This document shows positions 1-6,377 of a DNA stretch of 6,377 nucleotides, one piece after another. Below the pieces are notes generated by a model. It saw only the letters and a list, made by a program, of their open reading frames with translations. It made no database searches and was not told where the DNA came from. Each line of letters opens with the position of its first letter. Within the stretch, counting starts at the first letter, position 1. The position numbers and the translations under genes were made by a program. The DNA comes from Enterobacteriaceae endosymbiont of Donacia provostii (GTDB lineage: Bacteria > Pseudomonadota > Gammaproteobacteria > Enterobacterales > Enterobacteriaceae). The stretch covers positions 1 through 6,377 of the forward strand of contig NZ_CP046207.1 of assembly GCF_012570145.1 (NCBI RefSeq), written 5' to 3'.

Positions 1-87
1 ATGAAAAAAAAAATCTACTACATCTTTAAAGAGATAAAAAAGATAATCTTATTTTATGTAATTATTAATCTGTTAGCTACACAAGCT
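1..87 (+). other. Predicted Sec signal peptide of the adhesin (cleavage after TQA, residue 29)
   Basis: MKKKIYYIFKEIKK (basic n-region), IILFYVIINLLA (hydrophobic core), then T-Q-A / I, a small-x-small cleavage motif. Judged by eye only. Confidence 0.55.
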
Positions 88-2829
88 ATCTATACTAAAA
101 CAATAATTAAGAATAAAATTATAAAAAAAGAAAAACAAAATGTTAACTTCTATGTGAACAAAAATAGAATTAATAATCTTAGAAAAGAAATTTATCTAAA
201 TGTATTAGAAAATCAATATAAATCATTCTTAATATTAATTAGAAAAAAATTAGAATCTAAAAATAATAAAAATACAAATATTTTGATAAATGAAGAAACC
301 AATAATGTTTTGCAAAACTTGTTTTTTAAAAAATCTTTAGAAGAAGATGAAATAAAATGGAGTAATATAAAGAAAAATTATCATAGTAATTATTCAGGAA
401 GATCAAGTTATATTTCAGACATATATAAAACAAATATACAAAGTAATGATGATTCTGAGAATAATATTTTTAATTTATTTTTTTTAGCGAAAAAAAAATT
501 CTCTAATAGAGAAGTATTTATAGAAAATATAAAGTCTAACATTTTAAATAGATTCAATTTAAAACTTAATAACATAGTTAAATTAACTATGTATAGGATA
601 TTTGAAAAATTTCAGTTAAATGGAAAATCTTTAGTTAAGATAAATTTAAATGATAATTTGAATCTGAATAATTCAGAACTAGATTTATTATTTCCTTTTA
701 TAGAAAAGGAAGATTATATTCTTTTTATACAAAATAGTATACATAGAACAGACAATAGAAATCAAAATAACTTAGGTTTTGGATTGAGAAAACTATCATT
801 AGACAATAAGTACTTATTAGGAATAAATAGTTTTTTAGACTATGATATATCTTTAGATAATACAAGAGTTAGTTTAGGTTTAGAATTATGGGGTGAGTTT
901 TTTAAAATTAGTGCTAATACATATTATGGATTAAGTAGATGGTGGCATCAAAATAAAAGTTTTTTATATACGGAAAAAAATAATAATTTATATGATAATA
1001 TAAATGATGATGAATTTTTTTCAAAACCTGCTGCAGGATGGGATATTAATGCAGAAGGGTATTTTTTAAAGTTACCAGAAATATTATTTAAATTAAGTTA
1101 TACAAAATATTATGGAAACATAGGATTTAAACAAAGTGATTTTTTAGAAAAACATGAAAAATTATTTTCTCCTTCAATTTATTCATTTAGTATTAAATAC
1201 ACTCCTATTCCTGTTTTATCTTTTGTTATAGAAAAAATAAAAACTAATTATGGTAAAGATAATATTCAATTTGGAGGGTATTTAAATCTAAAATTAAATT
1301 CATCTTTTAGTGATCAAATACATAATAAAGTACATAATATATTTTCATCATCTTATGATAATAGATATGATTTTGTGAAAAGAGATAATAATATTGTTTT
1401 AAAATATAGAAAAAAATTTTTGATTAAATTATCAACAAAAAAAGAAATTTCAGGATATCCTAAAAGTGAACATTCTTTAGGACTAATAATTAATTCTGTA
1501 AACAAAAATATTAATATAAGTTTTCATAGTCAAGATAGTTTTTTTAGAAATGGAGGTTCTATGAAAATTCTTAATGGTGACTACATAATTAAATTACCTA
1601 GTTATGATTTTAAAAAAACACAAAATAATTCTTATAAAGTTAAAGTAATAGCTTATGATGCATTAAGTAACCGTAATGATATTTCTTATATCAAAATTAA
1701 TGTTATTTATCCATTAATAGATAAAAATAATTCTAATTTTAGTATTTACCCTAATTATATATTAATAAATTCCGAAGAGGCAAAAGTTACTTTTGATGCT
1801 AGAGATGTAAATAACGAACCCTTAATAAATATAAAAAATATTAGTTTTGTAGTTGAAAATGGTAATTTTCCTCGTCTTTATAATATAAAAATTAGTAAAG
1901 TACATGAAAATCCTAAAGGAACTTATACTGCAATTCTTAAAAGTTTAACTCCTGGAACAGCTTTAATAAGAGTAAAGATTAATGATGTTTGTAATAAGGA
2001 AATTGGTGCAAAAATTCATGTTACTAATGCATATACAGATAATATGCAAGTTGTAACTACTCCTTCTAATTTATTGTTGAAGGTAAATGAATCTTTTCAT
2101 TTTCTGATAAAAGTTTTTGATAAACATGGTAAGGGTATACCTTCTTCTGAAGTTAAAATAACTAAAGTAATAGCTATGGATCGAGCAGGATATGTTAGAG
2201 AAGATAATGGAGATTATCATTTTGATGATTTAACTAATAATACATCTTATGATGGTAATCATTTTATATCTTATACAAATAAAGATGGGGAATTAAAAGT
2301 TAAAGTTTCTGATCCTCATGGTATTGGAGTACGTACTTTTTTTAAAATTAGTGCAGACGATTGTGTTAGTAAAGAAATTTCTGTAGTTTTTTCTGTTCCT
2401 ACTAGTCCTAAAAGTGTATATGCTAAAATGTATGGTCATATGCCAGATTTTATATCTGTAAATAATTTGAAATTTTATAGACCTACATTATCTACTGAAC
2501 GTACAGGAGATCAAGTAAATCATTATTTAAATGAAGATTGGGCAAAATTTACTTGGTATAATGCTGAAGAATTTTGTAAATCAAGAAATTTAAGATTACC
2601 TACTAAAGAAGAACTATTAGATTTCTATCATATCCATTCAGGAAATGATTTATTAAGTAATTATGGGTGGCCTATAGTTGATAGATTTAATAGTGCTTGG
2701 AGTTCTTCTGCTATAAGAAATATGTATTTTCATGATCCTTTACATTTTTATGTTGATTTTTTAAATGATAAAATGGATAAAGAAATTGTTAGTGATGCCT
2801 TAGTTGTTTTTTGTGTTCAAGATAGTTAA
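1..2829 (+). CDS. Intimin/invasin-family inverse autotransporter adhesin (942 aa): signal peptide, N/K-rich low-complexity linker, inverse-autotransporter beta-barrel, about 3 bacterial Ig-like domains, C-terminal C-type-lectin-like domain
   Basis: Uninterrupted 942-codon ORF starting at the ATG at position 1. Residues ~258-470 (LGFGLRKL...LLGINSFLDYDISLDNTRVSLGLELWGEFFKISANTYYGLSRWW...KPAAGWDINAEGYFLKLPEILFKLSYTKYYGN...RDNNIVLKYRK; nt ~772-1410) match the conserved intimin/invasin beta-domain pattern as I recall it (NxFfDyd..R.slG.E.w.d.l.lsaN.Y..lS.W...ERpA.GfDi.a.gyLP..P.L..kl.y..YyG). Residues ~472-797 show Big-domain-like strand patterning (YKVKVIAYDALSNRNDISYIKINV; GTYTAILKSLTPGTALIRVKIND; TNKDGELKVKVSDPHG). 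Residues ~800-942 (nt 2398-2826) align with the intimin D3 / invasin D5 lectin-like domain: FTWYNAEEFCKSRNLRLPTKEELLDFY against intimin VTYNDAVNTCKNFGGKLPSSQNELENVF, and C-terminal VVFCVQDS against AYATCVK. No LysM-like segment is visible. Confidence 0.85.
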   Translation: MKKKIYYIFKEIKKIILFYVIINLLATQAIYTKTIIKNKIIKKEKQNVNFYVNKNRINNLRKEIYLNVLENQYKSFLILIRKKLESKNNKNTNILINEETNNVLQNLFFKKSLEEDEIKWSNIKKNYHSNYSGRSSYISDIYKTNIQSNDDSENNIFNLFFLAKKKFSNREVFIENIKSNILNRFNLKLNNIVKLTMYRIFEKFQLNGKSLVKINLNDNLNLNNSELDLLFPFIEKEDYILFIQNSIHRTDNRNQNNLGFGLRKLSLDNKYLLGINSFLDYDISLDNTRVSLGLELWGEFFKISANTYYGLSRWWHQNKSFLYTEKNNNLYDNINDDEFFSKPAAGWDINAEGYFLKLPEILFKLSYTKYYGNIGFKQSDFLEKHEKLFSPSIYSFSIKYTPIPVLSFVIEKIKTNYGKDNIQFGGYLNLKLNSSFSDQIHNKVHNIFSSSYDNRYDFVKRDNNIVLKYRKKFLIKLSTKKEISGYPKSEHSLGLIINSVNKNINISFHSQDSFFRNGGSMKILNGDYIIKLPSYDFKKTQNNSYKVKVIAYDALSNRNDISYIKINVIYPLIDKNNSNFSIYPNYILINSEEAKVTFDARDVNNEPLINIKNISFVVENGNFPRLYNIKISKVHENPKGTYTAILKSLTPGTALIRVKINDVCNKEIGAKIHVTNAYTDNMQVVTTPSNLLLKVNESFHFLIKVFDKHGKGIPSSEVKITKVIAMDRAGYVREDNGDYHFDDLTNNTSYDGNHFISYTNKDGELKVKVSDPHGIGVRTFFKISADDCVSKEISVVFSVPTSPKSVYAKMYGHMPDFISVNNLKFYRPTLSTERTGDQVNHYLNEDWAKFTWYNAEEFCKSRNLRLPTKEELLDFYHIHSGNDLLSNYGWPIVDRFNSAWSSSAIRNMYFHDPLHFYVDFLNDKMDKEIVSDALVVFCVQDS

Positions 2830-2918
2830 CTTAATTTTTTTTGATTAAAGACAATTTTTATTTAAAATAAATGTCATATAATATTCATATATTTATTATA
2901 AATATGAATTAATTTAAA

Positions 2919-3011
2919 ATGAATAATTTATTTTATAGGCATGTTAAAAATATTTTTTTTAATAGTATATTTATAATTACAGTTTTATTTTTTCATACAC
3001 ATGTATATGCA
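2919..3011 (+). other. Predicted Sec signal peptide of the polygalacturonase (cleavage after VYA, residue 31)
   Basis: MNNLFYRHVKN (basic n-region), IFFNSIFIITVLFF (hydrophobic core), then H-V-Y-A / QDT. Similarity to mature PehA starts shortly downstream. Judged by eye only. Confidence 0.6.
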
Positions 3012-4199
3012 CAAGATACACGTGCTGTTCATGAACCAGTAATACCTAAAGTATGTAAAATATTAATAGCAGATAATAAAAAAGATTTTACTAATGAAAT
3101 TAATAATGCTATTGTAGGTTGTGCTAAACAACATAAGATAATTAGCTTATTACCTTCCAGTAAAGGAGATAATTATTTTTTTTCAGGACCTATTATTATT
3201 CCATCTTTTGGTGGAATTTTAATTAATAAGGGAGTTATACTTTCAGCAATTAATGATCCTAACTTATATGATAAGGGTAATCAAATATGTGGAGAGTTAG
3301 ATAATATAGGTAAAGGATGTAATCCCTTTATAACTTTAAAAGGGGAAAATAGTGGTTTATATGGAGAAGGATATATTGACGGTCAAGGGGGTAGTATATT
3401 AAAAAATAAGAAATATACTTGGTGGCAATTAGCTACAGAAGCAAAAATTAAACATAAAAAACAAAATAATCCTCATTTAATTGATATTAAGTCAGGAAAA
3501 AATATATCTATATACAAATTACATTTAATAAATTCTCCCAATTTTCATATTGTACCCTATAATACAAATGGTTTAACTATTTGGGGTATAGAAATAAATA
3601 CTCCTTCTGATGCTCGTAATACTGATGGTATAGATCCCTCTTCTTCTCAAAATATAACAATTACACATTCTAATATTAATACAGGAGATGATAATATAGC
3701 TATTAAAGCTGGTAAAAATGGGCCATCTAAACATATATCTATAATAGATAATAATTTTGGTCATGGACATGGTATGTCAATAGGAAGTGAAACAAATAGT
3801 GGAGTTAGTAATGTTCTTGTTAAAAATTTAACATTACAAAATGCAACTAATGGAATTAGAATTAAAAGTGATATTACTAGAGGGGGATTAGTTACTGATA
3901 TTTATTATGAAAATGTTTGTATTTTTAATGTTAAAAATCCTATTATTTTAGATACTCATTATAGTGGCAAAATAAGTGAAGATAAAAATATACCAAGATT
4001 TAAAAATATTTTCTTCCAAAATGTTGAAGTTTTAACTCCTGGAGTATTAAAATTTGATGGATTAGATGAAGATAATATGATTGAGGTTTTTGTAAATAAT
4101 CTTCATGTAAGAAGTGGATCTTCATGGGTTAAAAATAATGTTATAATTCATGGTAATATTGATAATATAATCGATATAGATATTTGTAGGAAGTATTAA
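2919..4199 (+). CDS. pehA: Secreted endo-polygalacturonase, glycoside hydrolase family 28 (PehA-like pectinase), 426 aa
   Basis: All four GH28 signature motifs are in frame: NTDG at nt 3618-3629 (N234), GDD at 3684-3692 (G256-D258), GHGMSIGS from 3765, RIK at 3858-3866 (R314). Long collinear similarity to Pectobacterium PehA as recalled: FFSGPIIIPSFGGILINKGVIL / FLSGPLSLPSGVSLLIDKGVTL; CGELDNIGKGCNPFIT / CGVVDKNGKGCDAFIT; GYIDGQGG / GTIDGQGG; WWQLATEAKIKHKKQNNPHLI / WWELAADAKVKKLKQNTPRLI; LINSPNFHIV / LINSPNFHVV; ARNTDGIDP and TGDDNIAIKA are identical. The paired cysteines C46/C68 and C124/C134 are retained. An N-terminal signal peptide is present. Confidence 0.93.
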   Translation: MNNLFYRHVKNIFFNSIFIITVLFFHTHVYAQDTRAVHEPVIPKVCKILIADNKKDFTNEINNAIVGCAKQHKIISLLPSSKGDNYFFSGPIIIPSFGGILINKGVILSAINDPNLYDKGNQICGELDNIGKGCNPFITLKGENSGLYGEGYIDGQGGSILKNKKYTWWQLATEAKIKHKKQNNPHLIDIKSGKNISIYKLHLINSPNFHIVPYNTNGLTIWGIEINTPSDARNTDGIDPSSSQNITITHSNINTGDDNIAIKAGKNGPSKHISIIDNNFGHGHGMSIGSETNSGVSNVLVKNLTLQNATNGIRIKSDITRGGLVTDIYYENVCIFNVKNPIILDTHYSGKISEDKNIPRFKNIFFQNVEVLTPGVLKFDGLDEDNMIEVFVNNLHVRSGSSWVKNNVIIHGNIDNIIDIDICRKY

Positions 4200-4855
4200 T
4201 TTTTTTTTAAAACTAGAAAAGTAGTTTCATTATTTTTTTTATTTGATATATTTTTTTTTATAATATATAGATTATAAAATCTAGCAGCTATTTCATTTCC
4301 AATAGCTGCTAGATTATCTTGTGAAGAAGAATTTTTAATGAAATTCATAGCAAAAGATGTACTTGAACAGTATTTTATTTCCCATAGTGGATGTTCTTTT
4401 ATAAAAGAACTACATTGTTTTAATGGTTCTTTATGGCTATAGATTTTTTTTATTTTATTTAAAAAAATATTTTTTTTTTTGGTAACTAAACAGTTTTTAA
4501 TGGGTAACTTTATAGTTGTTTTTATTTTTACATAAGTACTATTTTTCTTTAAGTATTTTAATACTTCTTTAATAATTCCTGTATGATTATTTATTATAGG
4601 AACTATAGCTATTTGAATTATACCTGTTTTAATATGTAAAAAAATTTCATTAAAATTATGACAACTTACATTAATAATTTTTTTTTTAAAAAAAAAATTA
4701 TTAATGTAAGTTAATACAGCTAGATGAGAATAACTATATAATGGACCTAAAAAAGCAATGATCTTTTCTTTATTTTGATTATTTAAATTTAAAAAGATAT
4801 TTTTTATATCACTTATATTATTATTAATAATAATATTGTTATTTTTATTTAACAT
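4196..4855 (-). CDS. pheA: Prephenate dehydratase, stand-alone PDT domain (219 aa): a pheA P-protein derivative lacking both the chorismate mutase and the ACT regulatory domains
   Basis: Collinear with the PDT domain of E. coli PheA (about residues 100-285) as recalled: [19 protein letters not shown] / [36 protein letters not shown] / [50 protein letters not shown] / [47 protein letters not shown] / [22 protein letters not shown] / NFTRFVVL. The Thr equivalent to catalytic T278 is kept. Only 31 N/I-rich residues precede the PDT domain, and the stop comes 3 codons after FLVL, where the ACT domain would begin. Confidence 0.87.
   Translation of the reverse strand: [219 protein letters not shown]
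4278..4315. repeat. Perfect 15-bp inverted repeat with an 8-nt loop inside the 3' part of pheA (possible terminator for the convergent pectinase transcript, or a protein-binding palindrome)
   Basis: AATCTAGCAGCTATT (4278-4292), loop TCATTTCC (4293-4300), AATAGCTGCTAGATT (4301-4315). The arms are exact reverse complements. Each arm contains TAGCAGCTA, which matches the iteron core TAGCAGGTA at 8 of 9 positions. The function is not established. Confidence 0.4.
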
Positions 4856-4915
4856 ATGTATTTATATAAATAGTTTTATTTCATCATAACATAAATTATA
4901 TTTAAAGTAAAATTG

Positions 4916-5779
4916 TCATTTTTTAATAACATGTACAATATCATTTTTATCTATCCAACAACTCCATCCTGTAACTAATGAAACTTCAAATAAAGATTTT
5001 TTTAGAATTTGTCTAAACTTCCATAAAATAATAATTTTACTTCCACATAAGTTTTTTAAAGTTATTACCTTATAATATAAGGGGACATTATGAGTACAAT
5101 AAAAACAATGTATCCATTGCGATAATGGTCTTTTTTTTAGCTTTTTTCTTTCTTTTAAAGAAATTATAGTCCAAATAGATTGAGTAAAGAAAGATATTAT
5201 ATTTTTATTTAAAAAAATAACATTTTTTTTAGTTTTATCATTTCTATACCATTCTTGTAACAGATGACCTATATAGAAATAATCTCTATAATTAATTTCT
5301 ATACTACAGATAGATAACCTAATTAAAGATGATTTTAACCATTCATAGTCTTTTTTACCTGTTTTTCTATCTATGGATTTTAAAAAAGAATAAGATGAAA
5401 AAATAACTTTTTCTCCAAATGGTACTTTTGAAAATCGATACAAACATTCTAACCATACATCTAAATCTGATTGATCTAAACTTTCTCCAGTAAATTTTAT
5501 AATAAAATCATTTAGTGATGTTTTTAAGATATTTCTTTCATATCTTCTATATCCTTTTTTTAAAATACCAAATAAAGAACTACGTAAGATAATATTAGGT
5601 ACAGCTCTTCTATTTTTTGAGATATTTGGAAAAAAATTTTGTATATTAATACTTTTTTTTTTTCTCAAACATAGTTCTTTTTTTTTTTCTTTTTTTTTTG
5701 TTTTTTTTTTATTTATAACATTACTTTTATTAATGAGTAAACGAATTCTTTCGTAAAAATTTTTTTTTTTTTTATACAT
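4916..5779 (-). CDS. trfA: TrfA-family plasmid replication initiator (287 aa, about the size of RK2 TrfA-33)
   Basis: Collinear with RK2 TrfA as recalled: RRAVPNIILRSSLFG / MRAMPNDTARSALFT; IKFTGESLDQSDLDVWLECLYRFSKVPFGEKVIFSSYSFLKSI / ITYTGVELRADDDELVWQQVLEYAKRTPIGEPITFTFYELCQDL; LIRLSICSIEI / LSRLQATAMGF; LKNLCGS / FRLMCGS; C-terminal LVTGWSCWIDKNDIVHVIKK / LVEHAWVNDDLVHCKR. It ends in TGA (plus strand 4916-4918) at the same relative position as RK2 TrfA. An iteron array lies upstream. Confidence 0.88.
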   Translation of the reverse strand: MYKKKKNFYERIRLLINKSNVINKKKTKKKEKKKELCLRKKKSINIQNFFPNISKNRRAVPNIILRSSLFGILKKGYRRYERNILKTSLNDFIIKFTGESLDQSDLDVWLECLYRFSKVPFGEKVIFSSYSFLKSIDRKTGKKDYEWLKSSLIRLSICSIEINYRDYFYIGHLLQEWYRNDKTKKNVIFLNKNIISFFTQSIWTIISLKERKKLKKRPLSQWIHCFYCTHNVPLYYKVITLKNLCGSKIIILWKFRQILKKSLFEVSLVTGWSCWIDKNDIVHVIKK

Positions 5780-6065
5780 ATAAAATATATTGATTTAAAA
5801 TATTCTAATTTCAAATCAAAAAATGGATAATTTTTATAGTATTTTAAATATACTGTAATTTATAGAGTAATACTATTTTTTTTCACTCTCCGTAAAAGTT
5901 TAAAACAATATTATTTTCTACTAAAGCTATATATGAATTAAATAAAAGATTTATTATTAATAAAAACATCCTATAAAAATAATAATTAAGGTTAATTATA
6001 TCTTTTTTTTTTTATATGTCAAGATAATTTAATAAAATTTTTAAAAATCATATTTTATTCTAATT

Positions 6066-6216
6066 CAGAATAGCAGGGTAGTAAAACTCGGGATAGCAGG
6101 TAGTAAAACTCGGGATAGCAGGTAGTAAAACTCGGGATAGCAGGTAGTAACTCGGGATAGCAGGTAGTAAAACTCGGGATAGCAGGTAGTAAAACTCGGG
6201 ATAGCAGGTAGTAAAA
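6066..6216. repeat. Iteron array (putative TrfA binding sites, core of oriV): 5 identical 22-bp units, one 20-bp variant and one degenerate leading copy
   Basis: CTCGGGATAGCAGGTAGTAAAA occurs at 6087-6108, 6109-6130, 6151-6172, 6173-6194 and 6195-6216. A 20-bp variant lacking two A is at 6131-6150. A degenerate copy, CAGAATAGCAGGGTAGTAAAA, is at 6066-6086. Units abut head-to-tail with no spacers. Each unit has 10 G/C in 22 nt, far above the surrounding DNA. The 22-bp periodicity equals that of RK2 oriV iterons (17-mers on a 22-bp repeat). The array lies about 290 bp from the trfA start. Confidence 0.88.
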
Positions 6217-6377
6217 AGGTGAAGAAAAATCATAAACAAAAAAAATTTATATAATCCCTTTATAATCATTTTTTTTTAAAAAAAAAAATTGAATATTAAA
6301 ACAAACTAATGTAATATAAGAAAAGTATATGAAGTAAATAGAAAATTGTTTATTATTATTTTAAATAAAATTAAGTA
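6217..6377. other. A+T-rich tract next to the iterons: candidate DNA unwinding element, and across the presumed circular junction the promoter region of the adhesin gene
   Basis: Almost pure A/T, with no ORF. Contains a T9A11 tract at 6269-6288. Its position directly beside the iterons matches the usual layout of iteron origins. There is no experimental or motif-level proof, and I could not identify repeated 13-mers. Confidence 0.35.

Follow-up and report, generated by a model that had tools for sequence, protein, structure and literature searches.

The stretch of DNA analysed here, hereafter the window, is contig NZ_CP046207.1 (6,377 nt; assembly GCF_012570145.1) of the Enterobacteriaceae endosymbiont of the reed beetle Donacia provostii, and it holds four genes and a repeat-bearing non-coding region that is presumed to serve as the replication origin of a plasmid. 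An adhesin gene of the inverse autotransporter type lies on the forward strand at positions 1-2829 (942 aa; Pfam matches IAT_beta [PF11924] 1e-48, InvE_AD 5e-23, BIg21 1e-11 and Invasin_D3 1e-7), followed on the same strand by a gene for a polygalacturonase (PG) of glycoside hydrolase family GH28 at 2919-4199 (426 aa; Glyco_hydro_28 1.5e-57). The reverse strand carries a gene for prephenate dehydratase (PDT) at 4196-4855 (219 aa; PDT 1.2e-46) and the initiator gene trfA at 4916-5779 (287 aa; TrfA, PF07042, 6.4e-9 and 35.7 bits against a cut-off of 22). The Pfam assignments of all four proteins exceed the gathering thresholds. None of the four open reading frames (ORFs) is cut at an edge, and a recount gives 5,630 coding nucleotides out of 6,377 (88.3%). 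An earlier reading of the bare sequence, here called the original prediction, had described a window that opens at the ATG of its first ORF, truncates no ORF, is about 88% coding and combines trfA and iterons with genes for an adhesin, a pectinase and a PDT; the Pfam matches and a 22-bp repeat array agree with it on every one of these points. That no further genes are present also holds, as the leftover ORFs (28-69 aa) have no significant Pfam match (best E = 0.29); one of them is the iteron array in translation. The lack of Shine-Dalgarno sequences was likewise read correctly, the 40 nt in front of each of the four ATGs containing no motif of the GGA/GAG/AGG type. The claim that mob and oriT are missing stands for a relaxase or mob gene, which is absent, and goes too far for oriT, the absence of which is not provable from sequence. 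Scans of the window for tRNAs, Rfam families and terminators returned none.

The G+C content of the window is 21.72% over 6,377 bp, and Table 1 of Reis et al. (2020; Nat Commun 11:2964; PMC7289800) lists the plasmid of the D. provostii symbiont with 6377 bp and 21.7% GC. The window also fits the range of the 26 plasmid sizes given there for symbionts of Donaciinae (4,977-6,762 bp, GC 17.3-23.4%; example records NZ_CP046227.1, NZ_CP046219.1 and NZ_CP046201.1). In a protein database search, the PG and PDT of the window were 100% identical, over their full length, to the deposited proteins GJT93_02240 and GJT93_02245, which are encoded on a contig of 6,377 bp. The best matches of a tblastn search with TrfA against PLSDB were circular plasmids of the P. 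pusilla (5,276 bp) and M. mutica (6,327 bp) symbionts, which have the gene order of the window; the comparison with symbiont plasmids that had been suggested as a check thus leads to Donaciinae plasmids, for TrfA as well as for PG and PDT. The order adhesin, PG where present, PDT, trfA and iterons is common to all 11 plasmids compared (5.0-6.8 kb, window included), with no added genes, and PG is missing from the examined plasmids of 5.0-5.8 kb. We conclude, with a probability of roughly 95%, that the window comprises the whole of a circular plasmid from the obligate gammaproteobacterial symbiont of D. provostii, a vertically transmitted member of the "Macropleicola" group, that this plasmid replicates by a TrfA/iteron system and that it is retained for an essential PDT. 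The original prediction, a complete minimal symbiosis plasmid of the kind expected in a genome-reduced, pectinolytic leaf-beetle symbiont, therefore described what proved to be the published D. provostii symbiont plasmid. The plasmid, its circularity, trfA, the pectinase, a gene named "pheA" and an argument for retention based on pheA are already published (PMC7289800), whereas the adhesin, the domain-stripped form of the PDT (as against the "bifunctional CM/PDT" annotation) and a palindrome inside the PDT gene are absent from the literature searched.

Several independent observations support a circular form for this plasmid family. The published plasmids were obtained as single circular SPAdes contigs, and circular PacBio contigs are reported for M. 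mutica (PMC7289800), and the related PLSDB records are circular. On the M. mutica plasmid, the adhesin ORF stays open for 120 nt back across the record junction and there encodes a signal-peptide-like N-terminus (MKKNTFYKILKL...); because the ORF crosses the record start, the gene is complete only on a circle. In record NZ_CP046219.1 this adhesin corresponds to positions 1-2664 plus 6211-6327, with the true start codon 117 nt before the record end, and it is missing from the PLSDB gene table for that record because the gene runs over the record start. An independently assembled contig from the Logan collection (L061, from the unrelated run SRR32619173; 5,034 bp) has ends that share an exact overlap of 30 nt (k-1 at k = 31), which closes it to a circle of 5,004 bp. 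Its break falls within the origin region, and besides the iterons it contains only the genes for adhesin, PDT and TrfA. The last iteron and the ATG of the adhesin are 162 nt apart over the 6377->1 junction of the window and 164 nt apart in L061, and the alignment is collinear across the junction. The iteron core of L061 is identical to that of the window, and its size differs from all 26 plasmids in Table 1 of PMC7289800; its source is probably a reed-beetle symbiont so far undescribed. A comparison of the deposited records with each other was rejected as a junction test, their shared start point not being independent. Exact look-ups of the TrfA, PG and PDT of the window in an assembly index found no second assembly of the same plasmid, and an exact search for the iteron pair in a genome contig collection gave no match, the D. 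provostii symbiont apparently not being among the species representatives of that collection.

The adaptation to the extreme A+T composition that had been claimed for the cargo is borne out by a G+C content at third codon positions (GC3) of 8-10.5% in all four genes, and the ratios of non-synonymous to synonymous substitution rates (dN/dS) of 0.16-0.53 over the four genes indicate purifying selection. The predicted affinity to Enterobacterales was recovered for each of the cargo proteins: the NCBIfam matches of the adhesin are all to enterobacterial adhesin families; the best model for the PDT is the enterobacterial bifunctional P-protein, and its nearest outside relatives are from Buchnera and Tachikawaea; for PG, the nearest named free-living relatives, after the Stammera and stick-insect copies, are from Acerihabitans, Klebsiella and E. 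coli (49-51%). A long residence, as opposed to recent acquisition, is supported by the even GC3, the single gene order in the 11 plasmids and plasmid gene trees that are congruent with the chromosome tree (PMC7289800).

The TrfA domain (PF07042) spans residues 53-283 of the 287 residues of the initiator protein. By tblastn, TrfA is 68.5% identical to its counterpart on the P. pusilla symbiont plasmid and 62.9% to that on the M. mutica symbiont plasmid. It is about 50% identical to a clade found on plasmids of Arsenophonus, Aeromonas, Pantoea, Serratia and Yersinia, and about 23-24% identical to the TrfA proteins of pCNB1, of Acidovorax JS42 and of small vector-sized plasmids, which we take to be of the IncP-1 type. 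With a dN/dS of 0.16, trfA has the lowest value on the plasmid. Upstream of it lies the iteron array (positions 6063-6216), composed of one degenerate copy and six exact copies of AACTCGGGATAGCAGGTAGTAA at spacings of 22/22/20/22/22 bp; as a tandem repeat it was detected at 6070-6216 with a period of 22, 6.7 copies and 96% matches, including six exact CTCGGGATAGCAGGTAGTA, with the degenerate copy beginning at 6063. These iterons are presumed to be the TrfA binding sites of the origin. An array with a 22-bp period occurs at the matching position of the P. pusilla, M. mutica, D. piscatrix and Logan plasmids (4 to 8 copies over the five plasmids). The sequence of the iterons is specific to each lineage, which implies that it co-varies with TrfA.

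The order of elements in the origin region is the same in these five plasmids, namely the trfA leader, the iterons, repeats of 10-11 bp of the TATAATC type, A+T-rich DNA and the adhesin start. Within the trfA leader, the reverse strand carries a perfect sigma-70 consensus, TTGACA-16-TATAAT, at positions 5995-6022, separated from the iterons by 41 nt and from the trfA ATG, which lies downstream, by 215 nt. It is the sole 12/12 match in the window (chance expectation 0.038 per plasmid), and a perfect consensus promoter occupies the equivalent site in four of the five plasmids, with divergent spacers, while the P. pusilla plasmid has a 10/12 match. The overall number of promoter-like sequences in the window is at chance level (66 versus 63), so that only the perfect, conserved site is considered here, and we regard it as the candidate trfA promoter. 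The leader that would result is unusually long (215 nt for the window, 123-290 nt for its relatives). Beyond the iterons, a candidate DNA-unwinding element (6250-6288) consists of two 11-bp TATAATC(C/A)(C/T)TT repeats (6250-6271) running into a T9A11 tract (6269-6288). TATAATC-type repeats also follow the iterons in the relatives, where Tandem Repeats Finder (TRF) counts 2.7 copies in P. pusilla, 4.4 in M. mutica and 17.7 in D. piscatrix, and they are scattered in the Logan contig. The 11-bp TATAATCCTTT repeat beside the iterons is present in 17.7 copies in the D. piscatrix plasmid (122-316) versus two in the window (6250-6271); expansion of this repeat explains some of the variation in plasmid size. 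The remaining A+T-rich DNA (6289-6377) forms the forward-strand upstream region of the adhesin gene and extends over the 6377->1 junction as far as the adhesin ATG (position 1).

The origin of plasmid RK2 has tandem iterons and an A+T-rich region, and its layout includes DnaA boxes. With RK2/RP4 (IncP-1) trfA and oriV, the window shares an initiator of the TrfA family, tandem iterons with a period of about 22 bp and an A+T-rich region with short direct repeats. It differs from them in the low TrfA identity (about 23-24%), the lack of DnaA boxes and of korA, korB and incC, and an iteron sequence that is apparently unrelated. The label "IncP-type" used in the original prediction is thus justified as far as membership of the TrfA family is concerned, and not in the strict IncP-1 sense; on the sequence evidence, the replicon should rather be named a distant TrfA-family iteron replicon. 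By analogy with the RK2 paradigm, we propose the following multistep scenario for its replication, in which (i) TrfA would be made from the strong consensus promoter adjoining the origin; (ii) TrfA would bind the seven 22-bp iterons; (iii) it would open the adjoining A+T-rich region with the TATAATC repeats and the T9A11 tract; (iv) the helicase, primase and polymerase of the symbiont would then replicate the circle in theta mode. Copy number would presumably be limited by "handcuffing" of iterons, as the plasmid has no kor, par or toxin-antitoxin genes.

The PDT protein has the PDT domain as its sole Pfam match (residues 33-218, covering profile positions 1-178 of the 181 of PF00800), and no Pfam match to the chorismate mutase (CM) domain CM_2 was obtained. 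Its match to the NCBIfam model of the enterobacterial P-protein (PRK10622; 150 bits) covers profile positions 95-285 of 386, and PDT chains from the PDB align to it over their catalytic domains only. T211 and F213 of the T-x-F motif are invariant, and the protein ends five residues after the T-x-F-x-V-L motif. Every Donaciinae PDT aligned ends 2-5 residues past T-x-F, whereas full-length relatives run on for about 95 residues that form the ACT domain; in the alignment with these relatives, the position of the CM domain is taken by a short low-complexity leader. Compared with E. coli PheA, the window protein has a homologous catalytic domain with the T-x-F motif kept, but it is devoid of the CM (profile positions 1-94) and ACT (286-386) domains, for which there is no space between the neighbouring genes. 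Since trfA adjoins the PDT gene at one end and PG overlaps its other end by 4 nt, no hidden remnant of either domain can be present. All 13 PDT homologues found in Donaciinae symbionts are similarly short (216-230 aa) and have neither CM nor ACT, which implies a truncation older than the Donacia and Plateumaris lineages sampled. Judged by its sequence, the PDT of the window is therefore a catalytic domain only, which corrects the published annotation as "bifunctional CM/PDT". Given the loss of the phenylalanine-sensing ACT domain, feedback inhibition is expected to be absent, and the enzyme would convert prephenate to phenylpyruvate without such inhibition. Engineered fragments of E. coli PheA provide an analogue for a PDT that is active and insensitive to phenylalanine; by this analogy, the window protein should be both.

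The PDT coding sequence also contains a perfect palindrome of 50 bp (4663-4712), formed by two arms of 25 nt without a spacer, which lies in codon register and encodes ..TYINNFFFKKKIINVS.., whereas the longest palindrome arms in shuffled windows average 7.7 nt and do not exceed 11 nt. The palindrome is not mentioned in the literature searched. We compared the homologous site at a fixed register, +38 nt from the LGP..SYSHL motif, in 11 plasmids, with homologous sites in the contigs L001, L003, L061 and L062-L067. At least 21 of 25 Watson-Crick pairs are kept in 10 of the 11 plasmids, and five stems are perfect: those of D. provostii, D. piscatrix, D. crassipes, D. simplex and P. pusilla have 25/25 pairs, D. 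tomentosa has 24, D. clavipes 23, L063 23 plus two G.T pairs, D. versicolorea 22, the Logan plasmid L061 21 and M. mutica 14. A broader claim, that a palindrome lies at the homologous position in all five plasmids first compared, was rejected, as the M. mutica and Logan palindromes lie elsewhere. At nine stem positions, a departure from the window sequence on one arm is matched by the corresponding change on the other, and several of these changes alter amino acids on both arms, as in D. simplex, which has ..NKSFF/KKTLI.. in place of ..NNFFF/KKKII.. in the window. The proportion of paired cells (93.8% versus a shuffled mean of 83.9%), the number of pairs changed on both sides (10 of 25 versus 4.3) and the covariation score (0.276 versus 0.104) were each reached in none of 500 shuffles. 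When the partner was slid by 1-3 columns, the covariation score fell to 0.055-0.081 and pairing to about 50%. Folded as RNA, the stem has -22.3 kcal/mol (z = -8.05).

In the 11 plasmids, 21 perfect palindromes have arms of 13 nt or more, versus 0.03 expected per plasmid. The PDT ORF holds 15 of them and intergenic DNA the other six; the adhesin, PG and trfA genes, with about 78% of the DNA, hold none. Three Stammera plasmids, with a G+C content that is similar or lower, have one long palindrome in 18.9 kb. Other long palindromes at the PDT gene or its flanks are those at window positions 4278-4315, at 4645-4697 of the M. mutica record and at 2298-2363 of L063, for example. A second site about 200-210 nt past SYSHL is found again in lineages with an imperfect +38 stem, namely D. 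versicolorea, L063 and the Logan plasmid. A recurrent hairpin at +430 to +473 from the motif is not claimed as independent evidence, because it overlaps a conserved A-A-I...I-A-A peptide.

The adhesin gene is the largest on the plasmid and occupies 44% of it. The encoded protein has a signal-peptide-like N-terminus (a basic and then hydrophobic stretch, visible by eye in the homologues), a variable region (residues ~35-203), a beta-barrel (204-463), an Ig-like part (~480-800) and a lectin-like adhesion domain (803-926). Sequence matches in the PDB are to the beta-domains of invasin (4E1T, 1e-30) and intimin (4E1S, 2e-29), and to 5N40 at residues 577-911. InvE, InvD, FdeC, invasin and intimin are the best Foldseek hits, which we use as weak corroboration only, given the poor AlphaFold model (mean pLDDT 49.5). 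Invariant columns are distributed in keeping with this architecture, with 19% in the distal adhesion domain, 16% in BIg21, 14% in the barrel and 2% in the N-terminal region, and C859 and C938 at the tip are invariant. With Yersinia invasin and InvE and with E. coli intimin, the protein shares the order of barrel, Ig-like stalk and C-terminal lectin-like domain; in contrast to them, it has no detected LysM domain and an unrelated, highly variable N-terminal region of about 170 residues, and its bearer is an obligate mutualist, not a pathogen. From these features we infer a working surface adhesin of the intimin/invasin type (type Ve). No adhesin of Donaciinae symbionts is mentioned in the literature searched, which also holds no pairing of "inverse autotransporter" with Donaciinae. 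The symbionts switch between extracellular and intracellular life (PMC7289800), and a role of the adhesin in attachment to, or entry into, host cells is plausible; this large outer-membrane protein would probably be used in one of these ways.

PG has a Sec-type signal peptide (..HTHVYA/QD), and its translation contains the GH28 motifs NTDGID, GDDNIAIK, GHGMSIGS and IRIKS (PF00295). It would thus be a secreted GH28 enzyme that digests pectin for the leaf-feeding adult beetle. The M. mutica orthologue, which is 56% identical to the PG of the window, hydrolyses polygalacturonic acid, and the activity is also present in gut homogenates (PMC7289800). The closest relatives are, in order, the PGs of Donaciinae plasmids, those of Stammera plasmids together with GH28 proteins of stick insects, and proteins of Acerihabitans, Klebsiella and E. 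coli at about 50% identity. The PG plasmids of Stammera capleta resemble the window in being small (2.5-9 kb), A+T-rich, non-mobilizable and resident in a leaf-beetle symbiont, and their GH28 PG has 52-56% amino-acid and 71-75% DNA identity to that of the window. However, tblastn found no homologue of TrfA, PDT or adhesin on three Stammera plasmids; without a TrfA homologue their replicon is a different one, and a common plasmid ancestry was rejected, PG alone being shared. A further Logan contig (L068, SRR27871537; 478 kb, 38.8% GC) encodes a PG 55% identical to that of the window, adjoining a pectate lyase, and may come from a relative of the lineage that donated the PGs of the beetle symbionts, a pectinolytic bacterium that is less reduced; the contig was rejected as an A+T-rich background for the palindrome counts because it comes from a different kind of organism. 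PG and PDT are convergent, and their stop ends overlap by 4 nt (4196-4199), with no terminator found between them, so that transcripts of each should run antisense into the other.

The plasmid PDT would be the only prephenate dehydratase of the symbiont and required for phenylalanine supply. Since the plasmid carries an indispensable gene and the symbiont is strictly vertically inherited, it would need no stability functions; pheA has been argued to be the reason for plasmid retention (PMC7289800). Some observations count against this interpretation of the window or limit it. The circularity of this particular molecule is supported indirectly, through PMC7289800, L061 and the M. mutica plasmid, and all deposited records of the family begin at or near the adhesin start, apparently by a convention of the authors. 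The origin function of TrfA and the iterons is a prediction for the whole plasmid family. No DnaA box with at most one mismatch occurs in the non-coding region of the window, where one site with two mismatches was observed versus 2.8 expected, and none was found in the origin regions of the window and the P. pusilla, M. mutica, D. piscatrix and Logan plasmids, which leaves helicase loading unexplained. A source of prephenate, that is, chorismate mutase activity, was not located on the plasmid, the chromosome lying outside the search. Finally, the amplification of host-beneficial genes by copy number, to which the original prediction had appealed, is unsupported.

Two other explanations of the plasmid as a whole have to be considered. 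That the window is a fragment of a chromosome or bigger plasmid that merely looks self-contained would accord with the indirect nature of the junction evidence and with the lack of an independent assembly of exactly this plasmid for comparison. We nevertheless consider this extremely improbable, because size and G+C content match a published complete plasmid from authors who report circular contigs, the sister plasmid L061 closes on itself with matching content, the 11 plasmids of 5.0-6.8 kb share one gene order with nothing extra, and the M. mutica adhesin gene is whole only on a circle. The suggestion that the plasmid exists to amplify host-beneficial genes through a high or adjustable copy number, with retention of an essential gene being secondary, is more serious, and although doubtful it deserves attention. 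The perfect-consensus trfA promoter is compatible with a high supply of initiator, the ACT-less PDT points to selection for high flux, and there are precedents in Buchnera pLeu, where amplification has been proposed, and in the Stammera PG plasmids, where it has been measured. However, the literature searched holds no copy-number measurement for Donaciinae plasmids, the symbiont contigs were chosen for "similar coverage", without a sign of large excess (PMC7289800), and the plasmid PG of M. mutica is not up-regulated in adults. The plasmids of Poales-feeding lineages persist after PG loss, which indicates that PG dosage is not the general reason for having a plasmid. As for the precedent, Buchnera aphidicola, likewise an obligate symbiont of insects, has in pLeu and pTrp small plasmids with amino-acid biosynthesis genes from which the host benefits, and neither of them has functions for mobility or stability; copy-number modulation has been reported for pLeu. 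The cargo of the window differs from theirs in that it combines an enzyme of digestion with an adhesin and one truncated enzyme of a biosynthetic pathway. Buchnera pLeu uses RepA-type initiators, and its replicon type is thus different. We favour retention of the plasmid for its essential PDT.

Alternative explanations also exist for its two least expected components. The adhesin could be a functionless relic, a slowly decaying virulence gene inherited from a free-living ancestor: it evolves fastest of the four genes (with 63% identity in the closest pair, where the other genes reach 70-84%, and with 30-40% in deep pairs), it is undiscussed in the Donaciinae literature searched, and its AlphaFold model is poor. 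This is improbable in view of an ORF that is intact in all 11 plasmids (887-971 codons), even in the smallest ones that have lost PG, at a G+C content of about 20%, where stop codons arise easily. A dN/dS of 0.36 against D. piscatrix, the least saturated pair, and conservation structured by domain, with the barrel and distal domain and the two cysteines retained, further argue for a gene under selection. For the palindrome, the alternative is a non-functional, self-perpetuating product of hairpin-templated mutation, in which quasi-palindrome correction or template switching copies one arm to the other. The stems are strictly Watson-Crick, five of them without a mismatch, and each contains between none and two G.T pairs; this near-absence of G.T pairs favours a process at the DNA level over selection at the RNA level; other long perfect palindromes also occur at varying positions in these plasmids. 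On the other hand, the stem is fixed at one codon register across Plateumaris and Donacia, the 21 long palindromes avoid adhesin, PG and trfA, and the Stammera plasmids have just one long palindrome; such a fixed position and restriction to the pheA region favour a function. Long palindromes are normally prone to deletion, which likewise speaks against this alternative. We regard templated mutation as a real possibility that falls somewhat short of even odds. Only tentatively, then, do we suggest that the PDT gene doubles as the carrier of a cis-acting element, a 25-bp stem predating the split of Plateumaris and Donacia, and that the adhesin alongside it is a colonisation factor for the switching between extracellular and intracellular life.

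In summary, the inference drawn originally from the sequence alone proved correct down to the type of host. The loss of the ACT domain would provide a structural route to unregulated output of the phenylalanine pathway for the host. A mutualist with a genome of about 0.46 Mb that spends 44% of its only plasmid on an adhesin offers a concrete candidate for a factor of colonisation or entry. If functional, the palindrome may, in an organism with few transcription factors, set how much pheA product is made from the trfA-pheA transcript, either as a site of processing (by RNase III or otherwise) or by throttling translation; alternatively, it may act as a DNA cruciform or priming signal for a plasmid whose origin has no recognisable DnaA box. 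In either case, it represents a rare and testable case of selection, or of templated mutation, acting on nucleic-acid structure within a coding gene of a genome-reduced symbiont.

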